A stretch of 18,717 bases of DNA from Candidatus Zixiibacteriota bacterium (lineage in GTDB: Bacteria; Zixibacteria; MSB-5A5; UBA10806; 4484-95), in the NCBI GenBank assembly GCA_029932605.1, contig JAOZPT010000049.1, positions 1 through 18,717 on the forward strand, read 5' to 3'. The translations under genes and the position numbers were made by a program. Under the pieces are notes generated by a model that was not told the DNA's origin, did not search any database, and saw only the letters and a program-made list of their open reading frames with translations. Shown here in pieces: positions 2,332 through 17,729 of this stretch; the first letter of the stretch is position 1, and each line of letters begins with the position of its first letter.

Positions 2332-4347
2332 ATGATGAAAACTAAGATTTTTGTCATCCTGTTATTATTAACAATATCCTGTATCAATGCACAAACAGGC
2401 TTACCTCAATCATTACCACCAGGGGACAATCCACCACCAACGGTGTTTGACCGGATCATGAATGCCGGTGACGCCGAAGATTTTGATAGCGCCGCCTATG
2501 TTATCGTCGTTGACTCTTCTATAAACACAGTGAACAAGCTGGGCGTAGCTAAAGTCAACAGTTATATCCTATATAAGGCACTCACTGAAAAGGGCTGCAA
2601 AGAGCTTTCTGTGCTCACCTGGGGCTATGAACCTATGAGTAATCATGTTGAAATCCATGAGGTAAATATAATCCGAAAAAACAAGGCGATACCAGTACCA
2701 GTGGATAGTATCCGTGACCTGCCTGCTCCACAGAGCGGTATTTACTGGAGTGACAGGATAAAGGTTCTTCAGCTTCCACGGCTTAGGGTAGGAGACGGTA
2801 TCGAAATCAAGGTTTTCCGTAAAGGATATTCCTACGCGCTTCTTGACTCAGAAGGAATTGAGCCCGATGATGAGCCCTACATTCCACCAATGCCCGGTCA
2901 GTATTTCGATATTGTGCTCTTCGAGGCCACCGTGCCAATTGTGGAAAAGAAGTATATTTTGAAATTGCCCTCAGACAAGCGCCTGCATTCCAAAATATAC
3001 AATGGTCCGATGTTCAGCAGTACAAGCTATACAACTGATACCACCATATACACATGGTGGATAAAAAACGTCCCAGCCTGGAAACCTCAGCGATATCGTC
3101 CGGATGATACTGATATTGTAACAAAGGTTGTAGTAGCTACGGTAGAAAGCTGGGAAGCGAAAAGTAGATGGTTTTTTGATATAAACGAGAAACAATTTGA
3201 GGTGACTGACGCCATTAAAACAAAAGTCGATGAGATCTTTGACAGAGCTGGTGTAACCAATGGTACCGAAGATGAAAAAGCCTTTGAGTTGGTGCACTGG
3301 GTAGCACAGAACATCCGCTACAGCGGACAGACTATGGGTAAAGGTGAGGGTTACACTCTGCATTCTGGAGCAATGATTTTTGAACAGCGAAGCGGTGTAT
3401 GCAAAGATATCGCTGGTATGCTTGTAACCATGATGCGGGCAGCCGGAATGGATTCATATGCTGCTATGACCATGGCTGGTAGCCGTATAGAGGATGTTCC
3501 AGCTGACCAATTCAACCATTGTGTCGTGGCTTTGAAGAAAAAGGGTGGCAATTTTGTTATGTATGATCCGACATGGGTTACGTTCAACAAGGATATTTGG
3601 AGCAAATATGAGACGGAACAACATTATTTAATCGGCACTCCACGGGGAGAGACACTAAGGCAGATTGCCTATAGTCCACCTGAGGAATCGCCTTTACGGG
3701 TTACAAGCACCGGCAAGATACTCCCAGATGGCACCTTTGAAGGCACTTTTGAACTCAAAGGAGATGGCGCCATGGACTCACGCCTTCGGGGTATGCTCAG
3801 GCGAAATCGCTTATCCGAGATAAACAACTACCTTGCCAGATTGCTTCATTACATCAGCGACCGCGTTGAGTTAATCAGTTATGAGCACGGTGAATTACTT
3901 GATTTTAAAAAGAGCATGTGGTGGAAAATCAGTTACAGAATCCCTGAATTCGCTTTACTTGTTGATGGTGGTTACGAATTTAAAAGTCCTATGATGCAAT
4001 TAACAAGTTACAATCTTTTCAGATACATAACCTACAATTGGCCGGAAAAACGACGGGATGACGTATTCTTTTATGCCACACAACTGCTTGATGCCAGCGA
4101 GAAAATAAAGCTTCCCAGAGGATATAAAGTGACCAAGCCAAAAGAGGTCAAGGAGATAAATGAAACATACGCCTATTTCAACGGCGAAAGCAAGATGAGC
4201 AAGAAGGATTTTGTGATAAAACAGAAAGTAATCATCAAGCGACGCCAGATTCCACCGGATGGTTACGATGGCTTTCGGAGGGTGATGAGAGAGACTAAAA
4301 AGTATGCCGAGTCTATTTTCCGTGCCGAGAAAGGGGGTACAAAGTGA
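2332..4347 (+). CDS. Exported DUF3857 + transglutaminase-like domain protein, catalytic triad intact
   Basis: Signal peptide MKTKIFVILLLLTISCINAQ; DUF3857-like LPRLRVGDGIE; WVAQNIRY; GVCKD (C357), FNHC (H396), YDPT (D412); C-terminal beta domain (IKLPRGY). AGAGGA RBS; start 2332 or 2335. Confidence 0.88.
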   Translation: MMKTKIFVILLLLTISCINAQTGLPQSLPPGDNPPPTVFDRIMNAGDAEDFDSAAYVIVVDSSINTVNKLGVAKVNSYILYKALTEKGCKELSVLTWGYEPMSNHVEIHEVNIIRKNKAIPVPVDSIRDLPAPQSGIYWSDRIKVLQLPRLRVGDGIEIKVFRKGYSYALLDSEGIEPDDEPYIPPMPGQYFDIVLFEATVPIVEKKYILKLPSDKRLHSKIYNGPMFSSTSYTTDTTIYTWWIKNVPAWKPQRYRPDDTDIVTKVVVATVESWEAKSRWFFDINEKQFEVTDAIKTKVDEIFDRAGVTNGTEDEKAFELVHWVAQNIRYSGQTMGKGEGYTLHSGAMIFEQRSGVCKDIAGMLVTMMRAAGMDSYAAMTMAGSRIEDVPADQFNHCVVALKKKGGNFVMYDPTWVTFNKDIWSKYETEQHYLIGTPRGETLRQIAYSPPEESPLRVTSTGKILPDGTFEGTFELKGDGAMDSRLRGMLRRNRLSEINNYLARLLHYISDRVELISYEHGELLDFKKSMWWKISYRIPEFALLVDGGYEFKSPMMQLTSYNLFRYITYNWPEKRRDDVFFYATQLLDASEKIKLPRGYKVTKPKEVKEINETYAYFNGESKMSKKDFVIKQKVIIKRRQIPPDGYDGFRRVMRETKKYAESIFRAEKGGTK

Positions 4348-6317
4348 AAAGCCACATGAAGAATATGATTTTAATCCTGGCTATTTCAGCCATTCTGGCA
4401 ACATGTACTCCAACAGTATGGGCACAGAAATCCATCTTCGGAATGCAGGATATCTCAGAACTTCTTAAGGTCGCCGAGAAGAGCTTTGATTTGTCAGGAG
4501 AAGATGCTGTTATATTATTCGACAGTAAAGAAGTGAATTGGTTACATAATGGAAAATTATTAACCCATATACATCGTATAATCTGGATAAATACCGAGAT
4601 CGCGAAGAGAAAATATGGTGACCATCGCATTCCATATGATGATGCCCATTGTTATTTCAAGGAGATCACCGTCCGAACCTGGCGGGACGGGCAGTGGTGG
4701 GTGACAGGTTCTACCGGCGTCGTCGAAACTCTCCCTTTCAAACTTGAAAAAGCTTATGATTATACCAATATGCGGGAGATGATGTTGCTTCATAATGGTA
4801 TCGAGCTGCCTTGTATACTTGAAATTGCATACACCATAGGGGACAAGGAACCTTTCCGAAGTGGAGCCGAAGGTCTCTGGACTTTCTCCCGTGAGGAACC
4901 TGTTATACAGTCATGGTTTACTTATGGACTGCCGGCTGGGCAGATGCCCAATTTATTTACATCGGAGGACGTCCCCGAGCCAGAAAAAGATACTGATGAG
5001 GAGCTCGGGCTGGATATCTACCGTTGGAAGATGGGACCGTTAGAGGCCATCCCACGCCCGCATACAGATGACCCCGTGGGATATATACCCCACATAATCT
5101 GGTCAACCTGGAGGAACTGGAAAGAGTATGGAAATTACCTTAATGACTCATTTAAAACTGCAACAAGACTTGATGAATCCCTTAAAAAATCTCTGGATTC
5201 TCTTCTTGTAAACGCTCGTACTATCCCTGAGAAGGCAGATCTTATAGCTGAATTTATAAATAAAAGAGTAAGATTTATCGATTATCCGGAACATTACTGG
5301 TGGCCGTCACCACGGCAAGCTTTACGCACTTATAAAACGGCTTATGGTCATCGTCTAGATCGTGCCATATTGGCTGCCGCCTTGTTTGAGGAAGCTGGAA
5401 TAAAACCATGTCCTGTATTCCTCGGGAAAAGTTATGGCCTTGTCGATGAAGGAGTACCCGCACTCTCACGGATGGTCGGAGTCGGTTTATGGGTCTCGGG
5501 GGATGACCTTGAGGCATACTACGATCCTGCCAGCGGAACGGTTTTCAATGGTCTCACCCGAATTTATAACCGAACCATCTGGTTTCCGGGCTTTGATGAC
5601 AAACCAAGTGTGCTTACCACCGCCGAAAATAAACAGAGCTATATCGAAGTCCGCATCGACTTGGCATTTGATACCCAAAAAGACTGTTTTACCGGCAACG
5701 GTTATCTTTGCGCGGACAATTGTTTTAGTCCTTATGACCGGATGGAGGGCCTTGCTCAGGAATCGAAGAAATATCTTGGGTCGGTTGTCTCCAGCCTTAT
5801 CAAGGGTGCCGAGGTTACGGGTTTCAATCCGAGTGTTTTCAATCGCTCAAGGGTAGTGATGGGATTTGAATTGGAGCTGGAAAAACCCGAGCAAGATGAA
5901 TCGGGGCGTCTTAAAATTATCGTGGGTGAACCATCGGGGGGTGTTTTTGACCATTTACCGGCTGATGTTCACCTTTATCATCAGATGCGTTCTTCCCAGG
6001 TGCAAATTCCATGCTTGATGAATCAGGTCGTAGAACTCCGTTTAGATTTGGAGGGGCTGGATGTGATATATCATGCAACCGACCAGAGTTTAGAGAATGG
6101 GGCTGGAAGTTTCTCTATTAAAACCCATCGAAAGGATAATAAAATAGTTATTACACGTAAGCTTAATCTAACAAAAACAATATATCAACCTGAAGAATGG
6201 TTGGCTTTGCGTTCTTTGCTTTTATCTGACTCTCATGAGAAAAACCAAACCCTGTTCTTAAAGACAACAAAAAACACCAAAGACAACCACATCAAGAAAG
6301 ACAATACCAAGAAATAA
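4344..6317 (+). CDS. Exported DUF3857/transglutaminase-fold paralog, catalytically degenerate
   Basis: GTGA overlap with the upstream stop (alternative ATG at 4356); signal peptide ending VWAQ; DAVILFD; GIELPCILEIAY; FINKRVRF. GHRLDRAILAAAL replaces GxCKD; YDP retained. Confidence 0.8.
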   Translation: MKSHMKNMILILAISAILATCTPTVWAQKSIFGMQDISELLKVAEKSFDLSGEDAVILFDSKEVNWLHNGKLLTHIHRIIWINTEIAKRKYGDHRIPYDDAHCYFKEITVRTWRDGQWWVTGSTGVVETLPFKLEKAYDYTNMREMMLLHNGIELPCILEIAYTIGDKEPFRSGAEGLWTFSREEPVIQSWFTYGLPAGQMPNLFTSEDVPEPEKDTDEELGLDIYRWKMGPLEAIPRPHTDDPVGYIPHIIWSTWRNWKEYGNYLNDSFKTATRLDESLKKSLDSLLVNARTIPEKADLIAEFINKRVRFIDYPEHYWWPSPRQALRTYKTAYGHRLDRAILAAALFEEAGIKPCPVFLGKSYGLVDEGVPALSRMVGVGLWVSGDDLEAYYDPASGTVFNGLTRIYNRTIWFPGFDDKPSVLTTAENKQSYIEVRIDLAFDTQKDCFTGNGYLCADNCFSPYDRMEGLAQESKKYLGSVVSSLIKGAEVTGFNPSVFNRSRVVMGFELELEKPEQDESGRLKIIVGEPSGGVFDHLPADVHLYHQMRSSQVQIPCLMNQVVELRLDLEGLDVIYHATDQSLENGAGSFSIKTHRKDNKIVITRKLNLTKTIYQPEEWLALRSLLLSDSHEKNQTLFLKTTKNTKDNHIKKDNTKK

Positions 6318-6413: not shown

Positions 6414-8729
6414 TCATCGATTTCGTTTTTTGTAAGGAACGATTGTTATTCCCCTAATTCCATGGCAAACCCTCCAGTGGGTATTTTCTCTTATGCTTCC
6501 GTTTATAAATAACCTGCTTAAAGGTATCTGTAGGTATCGTTCGACAATTCGGTGAAGTTCCCTTACGCCATTTTGCGGGTCGTATCCTTTTTCAGCCAGA
6601 AACTTCTCGGCCTCCTTTTCAATCTCGAGAGTTATTTTATATTGGCGTTTAAGGTCTTCAGAAATTTCGTCAATCATCCGTCTTAAGATTTTCCTTACAC
6701 TTTTTTTATCAAGCGGCCGGAAAACTACCACTTCATCTAATCGATTGATAAACTCCAGACGAAAATGTTTAACAAGTTCGTTGACAACAGCCGTCTTGTT
6801 TAGCCCATTTCCCCGAGATGTGAAACCTATCTTTTTATCGGGAGAGATATTACAGGTCATAATAAAAATAGCGTTTCTCGCATCAACGGTCCAACCTTTT
6901 GAATCAGTGAGTCGACCATCATCAAATATTTGAAGCAGGAGATCAAAAACCTTGGGATGAGCCTTATCTACTTCATCAAGCAGTATAACTGAATACCGTT
7001 TCGTTTTGAGTTTGCCTGTCAGTTGGCCTTCTTCATCGTAGCCTACATAACCTGGTGGAGAACCTACGAGTTTGGCTATACTATGTTCCTCCGAATATTC
7101 AGACATGTCGATTCGTATTAGACCTGATTCGTCTTTGATAAGAGATTCAGCAATCAGCTTTGCCAGTTCGGTTTTTCCAACGCCACTAGGGCCAACGAAT
7201 AAAAACACAGCTAGGGGTTTCTTTCTTTTGCTTATGTTGGCATGAGCCATAAGAAGCCGTTCACACACCTGAGAGACTGCCTCATCCTGGCCAACCAAGC
7301 CTTTTTTTATAGTCTCTTCCAGTTCTGATAAACGCGACTTCCGAACATCTTCCAAATACCCCGCAATAACTTCAAGGGGAACTTCAATCTTCTCCGAGAG
7401 AACTTTCGCAATCGCCAACTCTGTGACTTCTAAACAAGTGTCTATACATTTATTGTTATCATCCGGTGTCATCCTCTTTTTGTCAACATTGTCCATCGCT
7501 CCCAGCCCAGGTATTCGTGTCTGAGCTCCTGCTTTATCGACCAGATCGATTGCCTTATCCGGTAGGCGGTGATCCGAATCGAATTTTATAGAAAGATCAA
7601 CTGCCGCTTCTAAAGCCCTATCGTTAATCCTGGCTTTATGATGTTTTTCCATCTTTGACTTAAGCCCTTTGAGTATCTCTATTGCTTCATCACGGCTCGG
7701 TTCGTTTATAATTATTTTCTCAAACCGCCTTTCCAGGGCAGAATCTTTCTCGATAAAACGTTGATATTCTTTAGCGGTTGTAGCTCCTATACAACGGATA
7801 TCCCCCCGAGCAAGAGCCGGTTTCATAATATTTGCCGCATCCAAACTTCCTCCAGCCAACCCGGCTCCCACAACAGTGTGCAATTCATCGATAAAAATGA
7901 TCACTTCAGGACGGCTACGAACCTCTTTTATAATTTTCTCAAGACGTTCTTCGAATTCACCCCGGTATTTGGTACCACCCACCAAAGCCCCCATATTTAA
8001 TTCGATAATTTTTTGCCCATCTATAACATGCGTATCCTTACCCTCGATGATTTGCATAGCTAAGGCATGCACGGTGGCAGTTTTGCCAACGCCTGCCTCT
8101 CCCACAAGCACCGGGTTGTTTTTTGAAAGGCGGGCAAGGGTTTGGATTACTTGAAGGAGCTCTCTGCGACGTCCTATAAACGGACCAAGTTTGCCTTCTC
8201 GAGCCTCACCTGTCAGGTCTCTACCATATTTCTCAAGTAAACTTTCACCTTCATAAATACTTTCGGGTTGCTTTTTTATCTTGAGCCTTCTGGATACGCT
8301 ATCTTTTTCAAACTGTTTTCCAGCTGTGTTTTTTCGAGATGCTGTTTGGACATTGTTATTTGTATTTTTAATCCATTTATTTGCTTTTTCAAGAATTATC
8401 CTATTGTTAAAAGGCTTAACGACATAATCCGAAGCTCCCGCTTCAATAGCCTTCTTTACGGTTGCTTCGTCCGCAAGACCGGTGGTAATTATTACGGGAA
8501 TAGAAGATGTTTCTGGATTTCCCCGAAAATTACGGCATACTTCGATACCATTGATGTCGGGCAACATTATATCAAGGAAAATACAATCGTATCTGTTTTC
8601 AAGTACCTTACCTGTTGCTTCGTAGCCGGTTAGGGCGCAATCGACTTCATATTCCTTAGTGGATAAAAGACGATTCTTTATGAGCCTTGATACAACAGGT
8701 TCATCATCAACGACGAGGATTTTTTTCAA
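6414..8729 (-). CDS. Response-regulator receiver domain fused to a ClpA/ClpC-type double AAA+ ATPase (ClpP-interacting)
   Basis: TTG start with AGGAG/AGGAA RBS. REC aa 1-120 (D8 D9, D53, T83, K105). D1: GEAGVGKT, KYRGEFEERL, IIFIDE, ALERRF, LPDKAIDLVD. D2: GPSGVGKT, RIDMSEY, PPGYVGY, LLDEVDKAH, GRLTDSKG, EFINRLDE, GVREL. IGF loop at aa 634-636. No Clp N-domain and no coiled-coil M-domain. Confidence 0.92.
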   Translation of the reverse strand: MKKILVVDDEPVVSRLIKNRLLSTKEYEVDCALTGYEATGKVLENRYDCIFLDIMLPDINGIEVCRNFRGNPETSSIPVIITTGLADEATVKKAIEAGASDYVVKPFNNRIILEKANKWIKNTNNNVQTASRKNTAGKQFEKDSVSRRLKIKKQPESIYEGESLLEKYGRDLTGEAREGKLGPFIGRRRELLQVIQTLARLSKNNPVLVGEAGVGKTATVHALAMQIIEGKDTHVIDGQKIIELNMGALVGGTKYRGEFEERLEKIIKEVRSRPEVIIFIDELHTVVGAGLAGGSLDAANIMKPALARGDIRCIGATTAKEYQRFIEKDSALERRFEKIIINEPSRDEAIEILKGLKSKMEKHHKARINDRALEAAVDLSIKFDSDHRLPDKAIDLVDKAGAQTRIPGLGAMDNVDKKRMTPDDNNKCIDTCLEVTELAIAKVLSEKIEVPLEVIAGYLEDVRKSRLSELEETIKKGLVGQDEAVSQVCERLLMAHANISKRKKPLAVFLFVGPSGVGKTELAKLIAESLIKDESGLIRIDMSEYSEEHSIAKLVGSPPGYVGYDEEGQLTGKLKTKRYSVILLDEVDKAHPKVFDLLLQIFDDGRLTDSKGWTVDARNAIFIMTCNISPDKKIGFTSRGNGLNKTAVVNELVKHFRLEFINRLDEVVVFRPLDKKSVRKILRRMIDEISEDLKRQYKITLEIEKEAEKFLAEKGYDPQNGVRELHRIVERYLQIPLSRLFINGSIRENTHWRVCHGIRGITIVPYKKRNR

Positions 8730-8747
8730 CTTCCTTACTCCTTAGGG

Positions 8748-9146
8748 CTAAGCCTGACTTCCCTTTTCTATAAGTTCTTTTACCTCCAACAGCTCTTTAA
8801 TCTTCTTCAACAAATCTTTCGGTTGATAAGGTTTGGTCATATAGGCGGATGCTCTTTCTTCTATGGCTTGTTTCATATCCTTAATTGAATCCCGAGCCGT
8901 AAGCATCAATACCGGGATTTTAGACGTCTGCTCGGATGAGCGCAACCACTGGCATACAGAATGTCCATCCCCCTCGGGCATCGATATATCCAATATTATA
9001 AGGTCTGGTTTCGTTTCGATAGTTTGTTGCTTGGCCTGAGCCCCATTCTCGGCTGTTATAACCTCGTAACCTTTAGCCTTAAGTAAAACAGAGACAGTAA
9101 ACACTATTTCAGGCTCGTCATCCACTACTAAGATTTTTTTTGCCAT
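8748..9146 (-). CDS. Single-domain response regulator (receiver only)
   Basis: KKILVVDDE, PDLIILDISMP, MLTA, YMTKPY; GGAG RBS; overlaps the upstream gene by 19 bp. Confidence 0.92.
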   Translation of the reverse strand: MAKKILVVDDEPEIVFTVSVLLKAKGYEVITAENGAQAKQQTIETKPDLIILDISMPEGDGHSVCQWLRSSEQTSKIPVLMLTARDSIKDMKQAIEERASAYMTKPYQPKDLLKKIKELLEVKELIEKGSQA

Positions 9147-9613
9147 TTTTTGCTCCCCTTCATCGAAATTTTCTTCAATCTATTATACTTAAAGCAATCA
9201 TCCGGACTATGCCGAGTAGTCTTTCCATTATATTTCCTTTTATTTTTTGACATGAGTTGTTCTGCCGTAATTAATAACTCGTCATGCTTGAATGGTTTTG
9301 TAATATACCTGGAAACGCCCTCATCAAAAGCCATCTGGTAGTCCTCTCTTGCTGTGCGTGCGGTTAAAAAGATGATCGGGATTGAGCGGGTTTCCTCAAA
9401 TCTACTCAACTCCTTGGCTACATAATGTCCATCCCCTTTTGGCATTGAGACATCCAATACCAGCAGATCCGGCCTTTCTTCGATTGCTATCTGTATAGCC
9501 CTTATACCGTTCTCGGCAGTTATGACCTCGTAACCTCTTGACTTAAATAACATAGATACAACTGAGACTATCTCAGGCTCATCGTCTACTACAAGCATTT
9601 TCTTGCTCGCCAC
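9128..9613 (-). CDS. Response regulator, receiver domain with a basic C-terminal tail
   Basis: GTG start with AAGGAG RBS; MLVVDDE, PDLLVLDVSMP, FLTA, YITKPF; ~40-aa Lys/Arg-rich tail with no HTH evident. Confidence 0.9.
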   Translation of the reverse strand: MASKKMLVVDDEPEIVSVVSMLFKSRGYEVITAENGIRAIQIAIEERPDLLVLDVSMPKGDGHYVAKELSRFEETRSIPIIFLTARTAREDYQMAFDEGVSRYITKPFKHDELLITAEQLMSKNKRKYNGKTTRHSPDDCFKYNRLKKISMKGSKKWQKKS

Positions 9614-11246
9614 TTGGAATCTCCTTATCGATATTCACCCCTTCTGGTTTTAAAACGGTCATTCTGTTTTCAGCATCTTTTACCCACTGAACCGGATTCA
9701 AATTATCTGACCAGGTTGTAATACCGTAGCCTACGGTCATATTATCGAGAAGCTCCTGAGAAAAAGACTTACGTAAACGATTAATATATCCCATTGCTCC
9801 CTGTTCATCAGATTCTAATAGAATGGCAAAAGTATCCTTTTGGGGATATTGAAGCATTTTATCGCTTGACCTGTGCATTTGTTTTTCAATATTTTCCTCT
9901 AACAATCCGCTGATGGACCTTATTATGCCGGTTTCATTATATGATATGTTATTATTGCGATACTTTATTCTCATCAGAATTAAAGTAATGGTAACCCCAT
10001 TTCTCTTGGCTTTTTTAATGTTTTCTGCCAGCTGCACATAAAACTTCGCCATCGAACTGTATATATGAAGTGAAAAGGAGAATGTGCTACCCTTTCCCGA
10101 CTGGCTTTTCACCCAGATATCTCCGGCATGTAACTCAACTATTTCTTTGGCAATTGATAAACCTAAACCGGTACCTTTTGCTCCTGCTCCCGGTTCTTTT
10201 TTGACCTGACTGAATTTTTCAAAAATTATCTTCTGGTCCTCCTCGCTGATTCCTATTCCAGAATCCTTAACCTCGACAATGACATAATCACTTTCCTGTT
10301 TGACCTCTATGGTGACATACCCACCTTCTGGAGTAAATTTAAAAGCATTGCCTACGAGATTTGTAAGAACCTGTATTATCTTCTCTTTATCCGCCAATAC
10401 GGGCAAGATGTTATCCGGCGCTTCAAGATACAGTTCCTGTGATTTCGTTTGAAATTTTGGTTTAAAGTCATTTATTAATTCTAATAATAGTTCTTTGATG
10501 TTTATTTTAGAGCATTCAAGTTTCATTTTCCCGGATTCGAGTTTGGAAGTATTTAGTAAATCGTCAATTAATGCTCCTAACCTGATGCAGTTTCGTAAAA
10601 CGGATTTAAGGCATTCATGCTGGCCTTCATTGATCGGTCCCGTAATTTCATCAAACACTAAAGAGGTCTGTGATTGAATGATGGTAAGAGGGGTGCGTAA
10701 CTCGTGCGAAACAGTTGATATCAAATTCGATTTCATCTCATCAAGCGACCTGAGCTTCTGATTGGCTTTGGCCAGCCGTTTATTTTCTTTCTCAAGTTCA
10801 GAGCGAAGCCTTAACAACTCCTGATCAGCGTCATATTTCTCAATAGCTTTTGATATAACCGAGGGGAGCAGTTCATAAAACAGTTTATCCTTGACAACAT
10901 AATTGTAGGCGCCTTTTTGTAATGCTCTAACAGCTATTTTCTCATTGCCCTGGCTTGTCATAACCACAAAAGGACAGCACTCGTTAAAGTTGATCAGATC
11001 TATTCCATCGCCATCGGGAAGGCGATAATCGGTTAAAACCACCCTGTAGTTTTCATTCTTCATCAATTTGACCGCAGATTCAACCGAATCGGCAACATCC
11101 ACCGACCATGATGTTTGTTTTTCAAGTGCCGCTCGAGCAAGCAGGGCATGGTCAGGGTTATCCTCAACTATGAGGATTTTTATCTCTTCGTCGTTTCTCT
11201 TCTGAGCCTTAATCTCGATAATATCTTTTACGGTTCGATTATTCAT
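9579..11246 (-). CDS. Cytoplasmic hybrid histidine kinase: REC - HisKA - HATPase - degenerate GGDEF-like domain
   Basis: REC (ILIVEDN, LTD73, VMTS, YVVK); coiled coil; H-box SH181ELRTPL; N box NLVGNAFKF; G1 DSGIGI; F box IFEKF; G2 GTGLGL. The C-terminal ~140 aa has a GGDEF-fold pattern (RSSD-KMLQY-PQKDTFAILL...TVGYGI...DAENRM). Confidence 0.9.
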   Translation of the reverse strand: MNNRTVKDIIEIKAQKRNDEEIKILIVEDNPDHALLARAALEKQTSWSVDVADSVESAVKLMKNENYRVVLTDYRLPDGDGIDLINFNECCPFVVMTSQGNEKIAVRALQKGAYNYVVKDKLFYELLPSVISKAIEKYDADQELLRLRSELEKENKRLAKANQKLRSLDEMKSNLISTVSHELRTPLTIIQSQTSLVFDEITGPINEGQHECLKSVLRNCIRLGALIDDLLNTSKLESGKMKLECSKINIKELLLELINDFKPKFQTKSQELYLEAPDNILPVLADKEKIIQVLTNLVGNAFKFTPEGGYVTIEVKQESDYVIVEVKDSGIGISEEDQKIIFEKFSQVKKEPGAGAKGTGLGLSIAKEIVELHAGDIWVKSQSGKGSTFSFSLHIYSSMAKFYVQLAENIKKAKRNGVTITLILMRIKYRNNNISYNETGIIRSISGLLEENIEKQMHRSSDKMLQYPQKDTFAILLESDEQGAMGYINRLRKSFSQELLDNMTVGYGITTWSDNLNPVQWVKDAENRMTVLKPEGVNIDKEIPSGEQENACSRR

Positions 11247-11269
11247 TCATCAATTCAATTAGCTATAGA

Positions 11270-11779
11270 TTAAACCTTATCCCTGACGGCCAAAACGTTA
11301 GCCGGTTTTGGCAGTTCGGATGTAATAAACCAGTATAGCTGCAGGTCTTCTATCTTGGATTTGAATTCGTTGAAATTAACCGGCTTAACTATATAACTGT
11401 TGGCACCGATGTCATACCCTTTGACGATTTCCTCGTCACGCTTAGAGGTTGTCAGCATAATGACAGGGATTCTTTTTGTCTCCGGTTTATTTTTTATTGT
11501 CTGAAGCAGCTCGAAACCATCCATACCGGGCAATTTCACATCTAATAAAATAACATCAGGATAAGGATATTTTTCTTTGTCTTTATATTCATTCTCGTTA
11601 TAAAGATAGTCATAGGCAGATTCTGCATCCATGAACTGGACTACTTTATTGACTACATGGTTTTTTTTCAGAATTTCTATTGTAAGCTCGGCATGGTCTA
11701 CATTATCCTCGACGAGCATTATAAACGCTGGTTTCGCCAACATATTAGTTCCCTGTGGCTTATTTTCTTCGATTCTCAT
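11270..11779 (-). CDS. Single-domain response regulator, Rcp1-like (phytochrome-kinase partner family)
   Basis: MLVEDNVDH, PDVILLDVKLP, IPVIMLTTS, GANSYIVKP and C-terminal YWF..SELP are typical of the Rcp1 family. ATGA overlap with the kinase stop; alternative ATG at 11743. Confidence 0.9.
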   Translation of the reverse strand: MRIEENKPQGTNMLAKPAFIMLVEDNVDHAELTIEILKKNHVVNKVVQFMDAESAYDYLYNENEYKDKEKYPYPDVILLDVKLPGMDGFELLQTIKNKPETKRIPVIMLTTSKRDEEIVKGYDIGANSYIVKPVNFNEFKSKIEDLQLYWFITSELPKPANVLAVRDKV

Positions 11780-14538
11780 AAAACGGTTTCATTTTCGGTT
11801 TCGTGAGATTTTATTTCCTTTTCTTCATCTGAATCTATAACCGGCAAAGTAAAATAAAATGTTGTTCCCTCGCCGGGTTTTGATTCGAGCCAGATTGTCC
11901 CCCCGTGTGTTTCAATAACACGTTTCACTATTGAAAGTCCAACTCCTGTGCCGCTGGTCTTATCTTTATCAAGGCGCGCTCGCTGGAAAATGTTAAAGAT
12001 TTTTTCATGGAATTTTTTGGGTATTCCTTCGCCATTGTCACGGATAAAAAATGCTCCCCTGTTATGGTCAGAGCTCTCGATACACGGATCGTATCCAACC
12101 TCAATTATCGCTCCTTCTTTTCCTGGCATATATTTAATGGCGTTATCGATCAGATTTTCGAGTGCCTCCCTTATTCTTTTCTGGCGACCGGAGATATTGG
12201 GCAATGAGTCTGAGCATAAGAGCAGGATATTCTTTGTCGATGCAGCTACCGAGAAGCTTTCAAAAATATCGTCAACGAGCTTTTTAAAATTAATCACCTG
12301 GGGCTCGTCCTCGATTCGACCGATTCGGGAAAGATCAAGCAGGTCTTTTAATAGTGCCTCCATGTTCTCAGCATTTGCGGATATCCGTTCTAAATACTTG
12401 GAGGATTTTTCATCAAGTTTTCCGGCCAGATTTTCCGCAAGCAAACCGGCAAATCCCTGCATAGAGACAATCGGAGTTTTCAAATCATGCGATATTGTAT
12501 ATATAAACTCCTCGAGCTCATGCTGGCTTGCCTCAAGTTTACGATTGGCGTTCTCCAGCTGTTCGGTATATTTAGCTATCTCCTCCTCAGCCTGTTTACG
12601 GTCACTTATATCCTCAAGCAAGCCATCATAGCGAATCAGCTTACCCTCTTCATTGCGGTGAGGCACCATAGTATGGCGAACCCAGATAACTTTTCCATCA
12701 CTGCGAACTATCCTGTGCTCAAATGGAGAAACCTCATGACCAGCCATGATCCGATCAATTAGCTTTTCCACCAAAGCCCTGTCATCCGGATAGATCATCT
12801 TACGCCATAAGTCAGGATTATTAAAATAATCTTCGGTGCTGTAGCCGGTTACCGAAAGACATCCAGTGCTATTTTTCCTGGATATGTTCTCATCGTCGCC
12901 GATCTCAACCGAATAAGTGTAAGAGGTTATGGCGGCCACTAGCCGGCGGTAACGATCCTCGGATTCTCGCAATGCTCGCACCGTTCGCTTACGGTCACTG
13001 ATGTCACGCACCGTCCCCTGAATCATTTCCGGCTTGCCATCTTTACCATAGATGACATGACTGTTTACCGAAACAGGAATATCACGCCCAGCCTTGGTCC
13101 GCAGGGTGATCTCGTAATCATTTATCGAACCCTTATGCAATAATATGTTGAGCAACTCATCTCTCTGTTTTTTGTCCGGGTATAAATCAGCCATCGAACG
13201 ACCGATGAGTTCATCGGGTTTAAACCCGGGAAGCGACAAACTTGATGGAGTAACGTTTGTAATAATCCCGTTCATATCGGTCTGGTAATAAAGATCGACG
13301 AAAGACTCAAAGAAGAACCTGTATTTTTCCTCGCTTTCTCTAAGCGCATCCTCTATCAGCTTGTTGTTGGTAATATCATCGATCACCAGAAGCAACCAAA
13401 CACTTCCCTTTTGTTCATATCCCATTTTCCTCAGGTTGACGTGGAAATAGTTATCTTTGTATTTCAGTTCAAATTCACGTCGGTCTTCGAGGACCTTTTC
13501 GCTGGTATTCATCCGTTCCTTTATCATGACAAGAATCTCATTAAGAATTTCGCCGTCAGGGTCTATATCTTCCCAAACTGAATTTGATGACACTAACTCC
13601 AATTGATTATCTCTATCCGAAAAGGATTTAATAACCACCAGTCCGCTAGGAATTGCAGATACAATATGCTCGATATATTCTTTTCTGGTGATGAGGTCGC
13701 TTATAAAACAATCCAAATCCTCGGCCATTTTATCGAAGGATTTGGCTAACTGCCCCAGTTCATCCTCTCTTTTGATGTTCAGGCGAACTTTATAATTACC
13801 CTGGCTGATCTGCTTAGTTGCTTCAGCTATTTTAAAGGCCGGCATTATAAGAAATTTAAAAACACGGTGTTGTAAAAACGAAAATACCAATAAAACCATC
13901 AAACCGAAAACCAATGAATATTTCACAAAGCTTGCCATTTTACTATCAAAGCCATTCAACGATAAAAGAAGAACCATATAACCGATGGAAAAGGTATTTG
14001 CCTCGTTCCGTAATTTCATTCCACTCTTAGAAAATGAATGTTCCTCGGGAGATGACATAGATAATTCGAGTGGTTCCATAATAAGCAAGCTGGTGTTTCC
14101 ATTAATCCTTACAGATATACCCTGAATACGAGATTTATTCTTTACATAAGGTAAGATATTTTTATCCGGACCATCGCCAATAATTAAAAGAGGAGTATAA
14201 TGTTTATCTAATAATGCCAAACCATGAACGTCCTTGATGAGGTAGGTTTTGGAGAAGAAAGATGATAATTTCTGTTTGATTTCTGGTTGACCAAGAACAT
14301 CGGATGTAATTCCGGAATCCATTTCACCATCGGGGTTGATTTTTTCGGTGATATTTAAGGCAATCATATTTAACAAATTATGCCCTTCTTCCTCATAAGA
14401 TTGTATAAGCTTGTCCCTTGACAGCTTATAATTGAACATCAGTATGGCGGAAATGATTATAAGAGAAATAAAACCGCCGAGAATGTTCGTTTTCAATAAA
14501 ACGGATTTCTTGATTTTTTCTTTTATCTTTTTAATCAT
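11776..14538 (-). CDS. Membrane sensor histidine kinase: TM - periplasmic domain - TM - HAMP - PAS x2-3 - HisKA - HATPase (Cph1/BphP-like kinase core)
   Basis: Two hydrophobic helices; HAMP (REDELGQLAKSFDKMA); PAS/PAC ends DIT, DIS, DIS; H-box EEFIYTISH684DLKTP; NLIDNAIKY; DNGEGI; IFNIFQR; GTGVGL. Confidence 0.93.
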   Translation of the reverse strand: MIKKIKEKIKKSVLLKTNILGGFISLIIISAILMFNYKLSRDKLIQSYEEEGHNLLNMIALNITEKINPDGEMDSGITSDVLGQPEIKQKLSSFFSKTYLIKDVHGLALLDKHYTPLLIIGDGPDKNILPYVKNKSRIQGISVRINGNTSLLIMEPLELSMSSPEEHSFSKSGMKLRNEANTFSIGYMVLLLSLNGFDSKMASFVKYSLVFGLMVLLVFSFLQHRVFKFLIMPAFKIAEATKQISQGNYKVRLNIKREDELGQLAKSFDKMAEDLDCFISDLITRKEYIEHIVSAIPSGLVVIKSFSDRDNQLELVSSNSVWEDIDPDGEILNEILVMIKERMNTSEKVLEDRREFELKYKDNYFHVNLRKMGYEQKGSVWLLLVIDDITNNKLIEDALRESEEKYRFFFESFVDLYYQTDMNGIITNVTPSSLSLPGFKPDELIGRSMADLYPDKKQRDELLNILLHKGSINDYEITLRTKAGRDIPVSVNSHVIYGKDGKPEMIQGTVRDISDRKRTVRALRESEDRYRRLVAAITSYTYSVEIGDDENISRKNSTGCLSVTGYSTEDYFNNPDLWRKMIYPDDRALVEKLIDRIMAGHEVSPFEHRIVRSDGKVIWVRHTMVPHRNEEGKLIRYDGLLEDISDRKQAEEEIAKYTEQLENANRKLEASQHELEEFIYTISHDLKTPIVSMQGFAGLLAENLAGKLDEKSSKYLERISANAENMEALLKDLLDLSRIGRIEDEPQVINFKKLVDDIFESFSVAASTKNILLLCSDSLPNISGRQKRIREALENLIDNAIKYMPGKEGAIIEVGYDPCIESSDHNRGAFFIRDNGEGIPKKFHEKIFNIFQRARLDKDKTSGTGVGLSIVKRVIETHGGTIWLESKPGEGTTFYFTLPVIDSDEEKEIKSHETENETVL

Positions 14539-15101: not shown

Positions 15102-15398
15102 TTATATTTCCTCGGTTAATTCTACGAAGCGTTTGTAAGGGATTGCAGTCCAGCTTTGAGATTCAAAAGCACCATTAGCCAGGCTTATCATCGAAACCTT
15201 GGCAGCTGTCTCTTCATCGGGAGCCTCGTAGATGTCAAGAAAATCGTATGGTCCTAAAAGGGCATAATGGGCAACAAATTTCACCTCCGGGCACTTTTCT
15301 TTTACCTGATCAAGCCAGGCTCGTCCAATCTTTGCCCGGTCTCTAACTTGCTTTGACACCTCAGGTGAAAGCTTGGTCATTAAAATGAAAGTTTTCAT
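15102..15398 (-). CDS. GYD domain-containing protein
   Basis: 98 aa; MKTFILMTKL...LLGPYDFLDIYEAPDEETAAK matches the GYD family G.YD..EAPD signature; AGGAG RBS. Confidence 0.85.
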   Translation of the reverse strand: MKTFILMTKLSPEVSKQVRDRAKIGRAWLDQVKEKCPEVKFVAHYALLGPYDFLDIYEAPDEETAAKVSMISLANGAFESQSWTAIPYKRFVELTEEI

Positions 15399-15466
15399 GT
15401 CCGAACTCCTTTAATTGTATAAATTGACCTTATTTATCAACGTATATATAATGTCACCCTGTAGAG

Positions 15467-16315
15467 TTATAGACTCCCCAGAAACTTTATCACCAGTATG
15501 GAGGAATTTATAGCGGCAACCTTAAAAAACTCGCGCAATTCATATTTGGCAGAATCGGAACCCGAACCGCCAGCTAAATCAGAGGCCGAACGAAATACTA
15601 TGAAAGGAACATTATTGACCTCACATACCTGGGCAACGGCAGCTGATTCCATATCGGTTATAAGAGCGTCGTATGTTGTATTAAGCCAGTTTCTCTTATC
15701 AGAATTATCGATAAAGGCATTTCCACTGACGCCAACACCACCAATTAATAACCTCGGTGTTCTATTACCGATATCCTGAAACGGAATTTCATCCTCATCG
15801 AAATTTGCGGCTATTTTATACATCGAATCGCCTACCGAGAAGTGAGAAATCCTGATTACACTATCCAGTGATGGTGAATATACCCAAATTTCATTAGGTT
15901 GAGGGCCATTAGCCCCATGATAAATGTAGTCATGAGTAACCCAACTTTCGCAAACGACGATGTCACCGATATGCACAGTGCTATCGATAGCTCCGGCAAT
16001 GCCTGAAAATATGACCCCTTTGGGATGAAAATCATCGATCAACTTCTGCGTGGTCATGGCAGCATTAGTCATCCCCACACCGGACTCAGCTAGGACTATC
16101 TCCTTTCCCGAAAGCATGCCCGTAAACACCGCCCTGCCCAATATCTTCTGGCTCTTTATAATTGACATCTTCTCCATTAAAAGTTGACCTTCGGCATCAA
16201 AGGCGTAGAGGACGAGATATGGATGAGATGGCTGAGGCTGTATCTTGCAGTGACCAAGTATCAATAAAGAAAAAACTAAAATAATTTTAATCGAGTACCA
16301 TAACGACCTTGTCAT
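15467..16315 (-). CDS. mtnN: 5'-methylthioadenosine/S-adenosylhomocysteine nucleosidase family protein with an N-terminal export signal
   Basis: AFDAE, SGVGMTNAA, FSGIAGA, GDIVV, DMESAAVAQVC, FRSASDLAG. ATG at 16315 has an AGGA RBS (the ORF track starts at GTG 16339). Hydrophobic N-terminus ends LILGHC. Confidence 0.8.
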   Translation of the reverse strand: MTRSLWYSIKIILVFSLLILGHCKIQPQPSHPYLVLYAFDAEGQLLMEKMSIIKSQKILGRAVFTGMLSGKEIVLAESGVGMTNAAMTTQKLIDDFHPKGVIFSGIAGAIDSTVHIGDIVVCESWVTHDYIYHGANGPQPNEIWVYSPSLDSVIRISHFSVGDSMYKIAANFDEDEIPFQDIGNRTPRLLIGGVGVSGNAFIDNSDKRNWLNTTYDALITDMESAAVAQVCEVNNVPFIVFRSASDLAGGSGSDSAKYELREFFKVAAINSSILVIKFLGSL

Positions 16316-16445
16316 ATATGTCCTGTTAGTTATATTCACTCAAGCACCCTAATGTCTTACATTTTCTCAATAAATCCTCTGACATTGATTCACTTACAAG
16401 ACAAAAAACGGCAAACATTAAAGGACTACCATTGTATTATATAAA

Positions 16446-16468
16446 AAACTGCAGGCCTGCAAACAGTT
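16446..16468 (-). terminator. Possible intrinsic terminator after the secreted hypothetical gene
   Basis: 12-bp palindrome TGCAGGCCTGCA (16450-16461) followed by a T-run on the minus strand; alternative stem AACTG...CAGTT. Confidence 0.25.
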
Positions 16469-16502
16469 GTTTTATAAAAAATCCAATAATAAGGCCATTT
16501 AT

Positions 16503-17033
16503 TTACTTCTTGATGAAATATTCGCCTTCCCATTCTACAGTGTATTCTTTCTCCGAGATAAACCTCCCCTTATAGGTGCCACTCCCCTGGATACCTTCAA
16601 ACTTACCAGTGCCTCTTATATAGGTAAATATCCCTTCAAATGTAATAATAGGAGCGCCCTCATCAGAAAAGATTGTAGTGATTTTGCCATTCCATCCAGT
16701 AAAAGTACTGTTGCCATTTTTTTCATGTTTTAAATAGCCCTGATGAGGCCCATTTCCCTTAATAACATCACTAAACGACATGTTGACAATTCGGGCGCCA
16801 TCCATGAATTCGTTTTCACCAGTACTGACATTCGTACCCTCTGACTGGGCTAGGGAAATAACGTGGCCTTCAGTGTCACCTACATCAAGTTTCTTCTGCA
16901 TGACATAAGCACATGTCATTTTCCCTGCAATCTTAGTCTTCTGCTGTGCCATCGATGTAGCCACGAAAAAAGCAAAGACCAGGGCAAGACCGACAAGCAG
17001 TGCCAGTGGCCTTTTGCATGTAAGTATTCTCAT
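16503..17033 (-). CDS. Secreted hypothetical beta-rich protein (allene-oxide-cyclase/dirigent-like barrel possible)
   Basis: AGGAGG RBS; signal peptide ending SMA-QQ; alternating beta pattern; GTGKFEGIQGSG motif resembles the GGTG.F.G..G of AOC/dirigent barrels. Confidence 0.75.
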   Translation of the reverse strand: MRILTCKRPLALLVGLALVFAFFVATSMAQQKTKIAGKMTCAYVMQKKLDVGDTEGHVISLAQSEGTNVSTGENEFMDGARIVNMSFSDVIKGNGPHQGYLKHEKNGNSTFTGWNGKITTIFSDEGAPIITFEGIFTYIRGTGKFEGIQGSGTYKGRFISEKEYTVEWEGEYFIKK

Positions 17034-17140
17034 GGATTTTCCCTCCTTTCATTATAAGTTACAAGCCCGCAGCTTTTTTTAATCCTATTATTAACAACCA
17101 ATAGCGTTAAACCCCTTTTTCTCTTTTGCGGTAACAGTCA

Positions 17141-17584
17141 TCAGCCGGATTTATCCCTCAGTTTCTTAAGGAACTTCAGATCCTGCAAATCTTTTTCTCT
17201 GCCAGCGGCCTTCTTCATTATTATTAAATCATCCAATGAGGCAAAATAGGTCTTCACGCCCTCAATCTCACCCTTTTTCTTGTTTTTCCAGACCTCCTCA
17301 AACGATATACCGGTAACAAATGGATGAATATCTGTTTCGAGGGCGTATTGTCTGATGAGTATTTTTTTCTTAAGCATATCCTCAACTGCTAAATCAGAAA
17401 CATCATAGCCGAAATCGGATAGTGCCTTAAGAGTTTTTTGCGCATTATCTCTATGGGGTTCGATGAATATGTCTATATCGATAGTGGCCCGTGAATAGCC
17501 ATAGAAAGGGAAAGCGTAGGCTCCGATTATGACATAGCGAACTTTATGTTCGTTTAATGATTTCAAAAGGTTTTTTATGTCCAT
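17141..17584 (-). CDS. Nucleotidyltransferase (DUF6036 / AbiEii-like), putative TA component
   Basis: YVIIGAYA...SRATIDIDIF (G[G/A].A and T.D.D motifs); C-terminal LIIMKKAAGREKDLQD. ATG at 17584 is preferred over TTG 17590. Confidence 0.82.
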   Translation of the reverse strand: MDIKNLLKSLNEHKVRYVIIGAYAFPFYGYSRATIDIDIFIEPHRDNAQKTLKALSDFGYDVSDLAVEDMLKKKILIRQYALETDIHPFVTGISFEEVWKNKKKGEIEGVKTYFASLDDLIIMKKAAGREKDLQDLKFLKKLRDKSG

Positions 17585-17729
17585 TATCAATCAACATCTT
17601 TAATATTGTTCGGCTGGCATTTATCATCATCCTGTAACGCTGGTCAACGGTGAGCGAGGCCTGGAACTCAAGCTCAAGCTCCAGCTCATCGACTTCATCA
17701 TCCGGGCCTATTTTGTAGATTGGAGGCAT
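17544..17729 (-). CDS. Small protein overlapping the nucleotidyltransferase start, putative TA partner
   Basis: ATG 17729 with GAGG RBS gives 61 aa (the ORF track starts at GTG 17771). It contains the SLTVDQR helical motif and overlaps the NTase by 41 bp. Confidence 0.65.
   Translation of the reverse strand: MPPIYKIGPDDEVDELELELEFQASLTVDQRYRMMINASRTILKMLIDNGHKKPFEIIKRT

Follow-up and report, generated by a model that had tools for sequence, protein, structure and literature searches.

The signalling cluster

The window analysed here is an entire contig of 18.7 kb (C48) from a 2.5-Mb genome that is 99.96% complete. It holds six genes in the same orientation, given here in gene order with the parts of their products on which our argument turns.

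11776..14538, minus strand: HK1, a membrane sensor histidine kinase of 920 aa (ORF, Pfam and motifs)
11270..11779, minus strand: RR1, a single-domain receiver with D80 (Pfam, tree and motifs)
9579..11246, minus strand: HK2, a cytoplasmic protein of 555 aa with the order REC (D73)-HisKA (H181)-HATPase-degenerate GGDEF (Pfam and motifs)
9633..10043, minus strand: degenerate GGDEF of HK2, a predicted c-di-GMP receptor (R459, D462 and R490 kept, active site lost)
9128..9613, minus strand: RR2, a single-domain receiver of 161 aa with D54 and a basic tail of about 30 aa that is absent from orthologues
8748..9146, minus strand: RR3, a single-domain receiver with D53
6414..8729, minus strand: REC-Clp, 771 aa, a receiver plus class I Hsp100/Clp ATPase (D1 and D2), with a TTG start and a strong RBS
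8385..8720, minus strand: receiver domain of REC-Clp, of the REC-HDOD subfamily, in place of the Clp N-domain (D53 at 8571-8573)
7410..7520, minus strand: middle region of REC-Clp, 37 aa, no coiled coil
6822..6830, minus strand: IGF tripeptide of REC-Clp (residues 634-636), in the ClpP-docking loop of D2

The successive junctions measure -4 (an ATGA overlap), +23, -35, -19 and +18 bp. The original prediction had described six co-oriented genes with just these junctions, and the coordinates and all five spacings are exactly reproduced. From the spacing alone we infer that the cluster would be co-transcribed; a promoter scan gave 23 sites against 23.5 expected by chance, and a terminator scan stayed at chance level. 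The signalling chemistry was also read correctly: both histidine kinases carry H, N, G1 and G2 boxes (H684 in HK1 and H181 in HK2), and all five receivers retain the acidic pocket, the phospho-Asp (D80, D73, D54, D53 and D53), the Thr and the Lys. A Pfam scan of the six proteins found no DNA-binding, EAL or HD-GYP domain, and the sole cyclase-like match is a sub-threshold GGDEF at residues 402-538 of HK2 that does not contain the GG(D/E)EF motif, in agreement with the claim that the cluster encodes no DNA-binding domain, active cyclase or phosphodiesterase.

HK1 has two hydrophobic segments, an outer domain of about 165 aa that has no Pfam match, a HAMP domain, two PAS domains, HisKA and HATPase. 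RR1 we take to be of the Rcp1-like type, and RR2 and RR3 are 53% identical to each other. The basic C-terminal tail of RR2 (window 9128-9250) is about 30 aa longer than in its orthologues, probably through a lost stop codon: 53 residues follow the KP motif, compared with 17-24 in six of seven orthologues (the seventh was not parsed). This extension probably accounts for the 19-bp overlap of RR2 with RR3.

An overlapping pair of DUF3857 genes on the plus strand (2332-6317), the first with a transglutaminase-like core, converges on the clp gene; at locus L217 a Clp of the parent clade described below likewise has a DUF3857-transglutaminase gene next to it, perhaps by chance. The remaining neighbours, at 15102-17590 on the minus strand and at 172-2120, are ordinary: a GYD-domain protein, a nucleoside phosphorylase, a 176-aa protein with no Pfam match, a DUF6036 nucleotidyltransferase, a UbiA prenyltransferase and a methyltransferase.

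A receiver joined to a Clp ATPase

The product of the last gene consists of a receiver (residues 4-115), a D1 ring (164-403) and a D2 ring (441-745). It has the two AAA+ modules, Walker A/B motifs, pore loops and arginine fingers of class I Hsp100/Clp proteins, the arginine fingers having been located in the window's protein. The Clp N-domain (PF02861) has no match in it, and the receiver stands there instead. Its middle region, with 37 aa against 75 in the ClpC and 137 in the ClpB of the same genome, does not contain the short coiled-coil M-domain of ClpC type, and a coil there has low confidence in the structure model. The Pfam families displayed for the protein, 25 of 37, include no Lon domain, and the C-terminus is a ClpB D2-small domain. 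The NCBIfam equivalogs for ClpA, ClpB, ClpV, ClpG and ClpK all scored under their cut-offs (for example ClpA 630 against 993, and ClpB 674 against 1232). The core shares 48% identity with both ClpC and ClpB of this genome, and the PDB matches are 3j3s and 1ksf. In a full-length structure prediction the ATPase core folded well and the receiver was forced into helices by the mixed alignment (pLDDT <50); a prediction of the receiver by itself was weak (53.7), and we use neither model as evidence on the receiver.

The motifs of both parts are intact. The receiver's catalytic set (D8/D9, D53, T82 and K105) is invariant in all four REC-Clp proteins that we found, and the same four have intact Walker A/B motifs, pore loops (KYRG and GY(V/I)G) and IGF. 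The IGF aligns on the VGF loop of Bacillus subtilis ClpC, and it is by this loop motif that a paper on ClpI tells ClpP partners from ClpB (PMC10149685). The genome has a single clpP, in tig-clpP-clpX, and separate mcsA-mcsB-clpC and dnaK-dnaJ-clpB loci, these gene names being assigned by reading translations; no ClpS was found. Since clpC and clpB have loci of their own, REC-Clp is an accessory third class I Clp, and it would likely use the housekeeping ClpP as its peptidase.

We put at roughly one in two the probability of the following reading: REC-Clp would be a ClpA/C-type unfoldase in which the N-domain has been swapped for a receiver, making it a phosphorylation-switched partner of ClpP under the control of the cluster's kinases.

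Origin of the fusion

Where did such a protein come from? The closest relatives of its receiver are REC-HDOD proteins, with identities of up to 57%. We examined this in a careful tree of 26 chosen rows, run after a larger quick tree. One clade (98/95) unites the four Clp receivers with four HDOD receivers; within it the Clp receivers are monophyletic (96/94) and are nested among the HDOD receivers with moderate support (85/80). The HDOD relatives, two of which came from the phylum search and two from protein searches, represent a small subfamily with a distinctive receiver (L204:4547-5944, L205:9005-10372, P0211 and P0288). At L204 the REC-HDOD gene directly follows orthologues of HK2, RR2 and RR3, and at L205 it lies in a different signalling cluster. 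A KaiB-like gene is found upstream of the REC-HDOD gene of that second locus (L205:8606-8926).

The ATPase core has another ancestry. It falls inside a clade of short-M Clp proteins of about 790 aa that carry a normal N-domain, in a tree that contained no ClpI sequences. Its sister there, with weak support (0.84), is a group of Clp proteins with an inserted adenylate/guanylate cyclase domain. This domain lies between the N-domain and D1 in P0007, P0009 and P0012, and at the N-terminus in P0056; three of these four short-M proteins constitute the sister group. Members of the parent clade were seen in 8 of 301 genomes sampled from one phylum; among 401 genomes sampled from another, none was found at E 1e-190.

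In the nine loci examined, parent-clade genes often lie beside signalling genes. Seven loci adjoin them, one does not and one contig is too short, the genomes being themselves rich in signalling genes. The seven neighbourhoods comprise a Ser/Thr kinase-TPR gene (two), REC-PilZ with a cyclase (one), a hybrid kinase (three, closely related) and a two-component pair (one). The loci examined include L217:11217-14384, L219:6207-14868, L218, L221, L222, L224 and L207, and FHA-kinase and PP2C genes are also among the neighbours. The short-M clade is possibly an undescribed, signalling-associated Clp subfamily. For REC-Clp itself the simplest history would be an output-domain swap, in which the HDOD output of a REC-HDOD protein was replaced by a short-M Clp core.

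Spread and conservation

REC-Clp makes up four clusters at 90% identity (P0001-P0004) among the matches listed from 5.8 billion clusters, in two word-indexed searches of which the first scored the best 7994 candidates and listed 120 of them, and the second scored 413. An exhaustive search of the 50% representatives with residues 1-200 gave one REC-Clp among the best 150. None turned up in 284 other genomes of the same phylum, and no close copy in plasmid records, where the best identity was below 60% in all 311; no cultured host was seen among the four clusters. From these searches we judge the family to be real but narrow. The homologues are 68-78% identical to the window's protein. Across the four proteins identity is 69-96% in the receiver, 70-89% in D2 and 24-83% in the variable linker of 45-69 aa that joins the receiver to D1. 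The receiver is thus conserved like D2 and far more than the linker, which argues for selection on the receiver.

These numbers bear on a first alternative, that REC-Clp is a young, near-neutral fusion: an accessory Clp would have recombined into a terminal REC-HDOD gene, leaving a receiver that does not regulate the motor, or a gene in decay. The small number of clusters and the lack of a match in the 284 other genomes of the phylum are what one would expect in that case. REC-Clp proteins also depart from the conserved columns of the parent clade more often, at 18-27 of 274 columns against 4-13 in four parent members, an excess that may reflect relaxed selection. However, in homologues this far diverged from the window's protein neither part has lost a catalytic residue, the receiver has been kept far better than the linker, and the host-like composition (GC 0.408 vs 0.409, tetranucleotide distance at the 72nd percentile) speaks against a fresh arrival. 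We regard such a fusion as improbable, and prefer to see in REC-Clp a switched partner of ClpP. The composition also led us to reject a recent horizontal island as an explanation of the locus.

Does REC-Clp travel with the kinases, as the original prediction expected? The closest orthologues of HK2 are P0298 (81%) and P0299 (71%), the next best reaching 40%. They share longest-contig size and source with the REC-Clp clusters P0002 and P0004 (19069 and 12906; Logan), and as a positive control for this matching the window's own clusters share 49528. For P0003 no link was seen, the HK2 cluster's second member being on a contig of another size. By matching contig size and source, two of the three homologues keep REC-Clp and HK2 together although the proteins have diverged by about 25-30%, and the expected co-occurrence is supported for HK2. 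Neighbourhood scans with a receiver alignment, run on metagenome and genome contigs with generic patterns, returned only ordinary regulators at 32-50% identity, with a Clp fragment near the edge in 1 of 160 loci.

The upstream cassette

Kinases of the HK2 family were found at 10 loci in 8 of the phylum's 284 other genomes, and at six of these loci one or two regulators of the RR2/RR3 type follow the kinase. Yet none of the nine loci with readable downstream DNA has a Clp gene there; the tenth contig ends at the kinase. The genes downstream differ between loci and comprise REC-HDOD, additional kinases, an acetyltransferase or pilus/T2SS genes, or are lacking altogether. We read the cassette as a general signalling module to which, in this lineage, Clp would be a specific output added. 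The original prediction had made the AAA+ unfoldase the only apparent effector of the system; as a property of the cassette this fails, with 0 of 9 assessable loci ending in Clp. Because the cassette recurs in this Clp-less form, the regulators of the RR1-RR3 type probably aim at other targets, and Clp is not necessarily the only output of the window's cluster.

Related cassettes occur elsewhere. A second kinase/Rcp1-like/REC-kinase trio in this genome (G000:C45:9178-15716) is followed by pilus or T2SS genes, and so are related cassettes in two other genomes, at L215 and L216; these genes encode an MshEN-bearing ATPase and a PilC-like protein. At L208:1407-11276 a related cassette includes KaiB-like, KaiC and anti-sigma/anti-anti-sigma-like genes, the last of these read from translations only.

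This pattern lends some weight to an alternative in which REC-Clp is phospho-controlled and ClpP-coupled and its clients are RR2, RR3 and HK2. Its task would then be to reset or end the pathway, and the real outputs would be the single-domain regulators, with targets elsewhere such as pilus or c-di-GMP machinery. Cassettes that encode no Clp, and the pilus/T2SS genes behind the three just mentioned, are in keeping with such a role; moreover, removal of response regulators by proteases is a described way of silencing two-component systems (PMC12471899). On the other hand the HDOD ancestor that occupied the same slot resembles an output and not a feedback part. We hold a feedback role to be rather unlikely, if worth keeping in mind, and continue to favour Clp as a switched output.

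A predicted c-di-GMP input

The tail of HK2 combines a degenerate active site with a complete I-site, R459-x-x-D462 and R490, whose spacing is that of R763/D766/R794 in SgmT. For SgmT, binding of c-di-GMP at this site has been demonstrated (PMC3509222). Given so complete an SgmT-like I-site, a c-di-GMP input to HK2 is predicted, with the GGDEF-like tail as the predicted receptor. The 120 sequences compared gave 106 usable ones and 63 tails of the family; 40 of these tails have RxxD and 51 the second Arg, and none has an intact GG(D/E)EF. The genome encodes two intact GGEEF cyclases and one protein with an HD-GYP motif. An active cyclase in HK2 itself was rejected, the GG(D/E)EF motif being lost.

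Wiring of the cluster

Helix alpha-1 of the receivers gives some indication of who talks to whom. Among 32 other receivers of the genome, the receiver of HK2 is the best match to RR1 in this helix, which suggests that HK1 feeds both. For the Clp receivers the same comparison is less telling and does not group them with the presumed clients of HK2. In likeness to the RR2/RR3 clade the four rank 18, 62, 63 and 98 of 100. No stretch of these receivers varies more than alpha-1, in which 3 of 13 positions are invariant. In the same test two of the three HDOD receivers took ranks 5 and 8. In the Clp-bearing lineage the HK2 residues after the phospho-His are changed relative to the rest of the family, a change that would fit rewiring and proves nothing.

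The original prediction had spoken of a phosphorelay. In the CckA-ChpT sense this is not supported: the Hpt family PF01627 has no match in the 99.96%-complete genome (the same search matched in 9 of 14 control genomes), and with no Hpt found the arrangement is better termed a two-kinase cascade.

A last alternative takes REC-Clp for a phospho-controlled remodeller that dismantles complexes without ClpP, or for a protein that answers to a kinase outside the cluster. The IGF loop is short, and is absent from 20 of 103 short-M proteins of the parent clade; ClpI enzymes occur with or without the loop (PMC10149685). The genome, with 38 receiver-containing ORFs and many kinases, offers other partners, and the alpha-1 match to the clients of HK2 is weak. 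Against this, IGF is retained in all four fusions while the flanking loop residues vary, and the linkage to HK2 is conserved in two of three homologues. Neither form of this alternative seems probable to us, and we set out below how a ClpP-coupled REC-Clp under the cluster's kinases could work.

Proposed mechanism

In a first step HK1 would detect an outside signal and phosphorylate RR1 and the receiver of HK2, the two that share helix alpha-1. HK2, whose activity or place in the cell c-di-GMP would also set through the I-site, would in turn phosphorylate RR2, RR3 and D53 of REC-Clp. We imagine that phosphorylation of D53 alters the pairing or partner binding of six flexibly tethered receivers above the ring, which would act as a built-in adaptor or gate, and that engaged substrates are then unfolded into ClpP. 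Coupling of the NtrC type is tight; a variable linker of 45-69 aa fits an adaptor or gate better.

What, then, is left of the circuit from membrane signal to proteolysis that the original prediction proposed? For this cluster it has gained from the HK2 linkage, a receiver derived from the REC-HDOD slot, the ClpP-docking loop and the presence of clpP; as a type of cluster it has not, with no Clp at any of the nine assessable homologous loci.

Relation to known systems

As a rule, separate adaptors convey phosphorylation signals to Clp proteases. The receiver-domain adaptors of ClpXP, namely RssB and the Caulobacter proteins CpdR, RcdA and PopA, are separate proteins that act on the housekeeping ClpX. 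Common to them and, by prediction, to the window's system is that delivery to a Clp protease is controlled by receiver phosphorylation and by c-di-GMP at a degenerate GGDEF; the difference is that the window's receiver sits inside a dedicated ClpA/C-type motor, that the I-site is on a kinase, and that no Hpt was found. PopA carries an I-site (PMC3509222). The parallel with PopA is therefore closer than was originally argued, since the degenerate GGDEF of HK2 with its full I-site had been missed.

SgmT of Myxococcus xanthus resembles HK2 as a hybrid kinase with a C-terminal GGDEF, a dead active site and the same I-site R/D/R spacing, a likeness of shared domains; the order is GAF-kinase-REC-GGDEF in SgmT and REC-kinase-GGDEF in HK2. 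SgmT signals to a DNA-binding regulator, and c-di-GMP altered its localisation and not its kinase activity (PMC3509222).

With ClpC, ClpA and ClpI the motor shares D1 and D2 rings, pore loops and the ClpP-docking loop, and with ClpI also the position of an accessory paralogue beside ClpB and ClpC and a short middle region. REC-Clp differs in having neither a Clp N-domain nor an M coiled coil, and in belonging to a separate short-M clade. ClpI is defined within Actinomycetota in PMC10149685, whose text does not contain the words 'receiver' or 'response regulator'.

The nearest precedent is DVU3303 of Desulfovibrio vulgaris, a Lon-containing response regulator encoded with the kinase DVU3304 and the regulator DVU3305, for which the authors suggest that phosphorylation may be required for protease activity (PMC3333781). 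In both cases a receiver is covalently joined to an ATP-dependent proteolysis module within a two-component operon. However, Lon has its own peptidase, whereas the class I Hsp100 motor of REC-Clp would need ClpP in trans; and the DVU operon has a DNA-binding regulator, which the window's cluster lacks, its own features being a pair of kinases and a predicted c-di-GMP site. REC-Lon and REC-Clp are independent fusions. In the ESM Atlas we also saw REC-Lon clusters with 73-144 members, and clusters of about 509 aa with REC, AAA and AAA_2/D2-small domains (67-130 members, mostly Acidobacteriota), which may be another receiver-unfoldase fusion.

Full-text literature searches, whose coverage of subscription papers was small, returned no description of a receiver-Clp fusion. 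The REC-Clp fusion is thus rare and apparently undescribed, its concept having a precedent in REC-Lon DVU3303. Its weight as a finding is limited by this precedent and by its rarity, with four clusters and no cultured host seen. A broader claim, which we offer tentatively and hold at somewhat under even odds, is that in REC-Clp an Hsp100/Clp unfoldase would, for the first time, be a response regulator in its own right. Two kinases, one in the membrane and one binding c-di-GMP, would converge on the receiver of the motor, placing the logic of CpdR and PopA in one ClpP partner, and the Clp core, taken from an undescribed signalling-coupled clade, would have been swapped into the slot of a response regulator.

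With a receiver built into a class I Clp, one protein would make up a switchable motor of degradation that lends itself to purification and assay, and inducible proteolysis would gain a natural template. The clear ancestry of the protein, from a REC-HDOD slot and a short-M Clp core, also shows the birth of a new response-regulator output.
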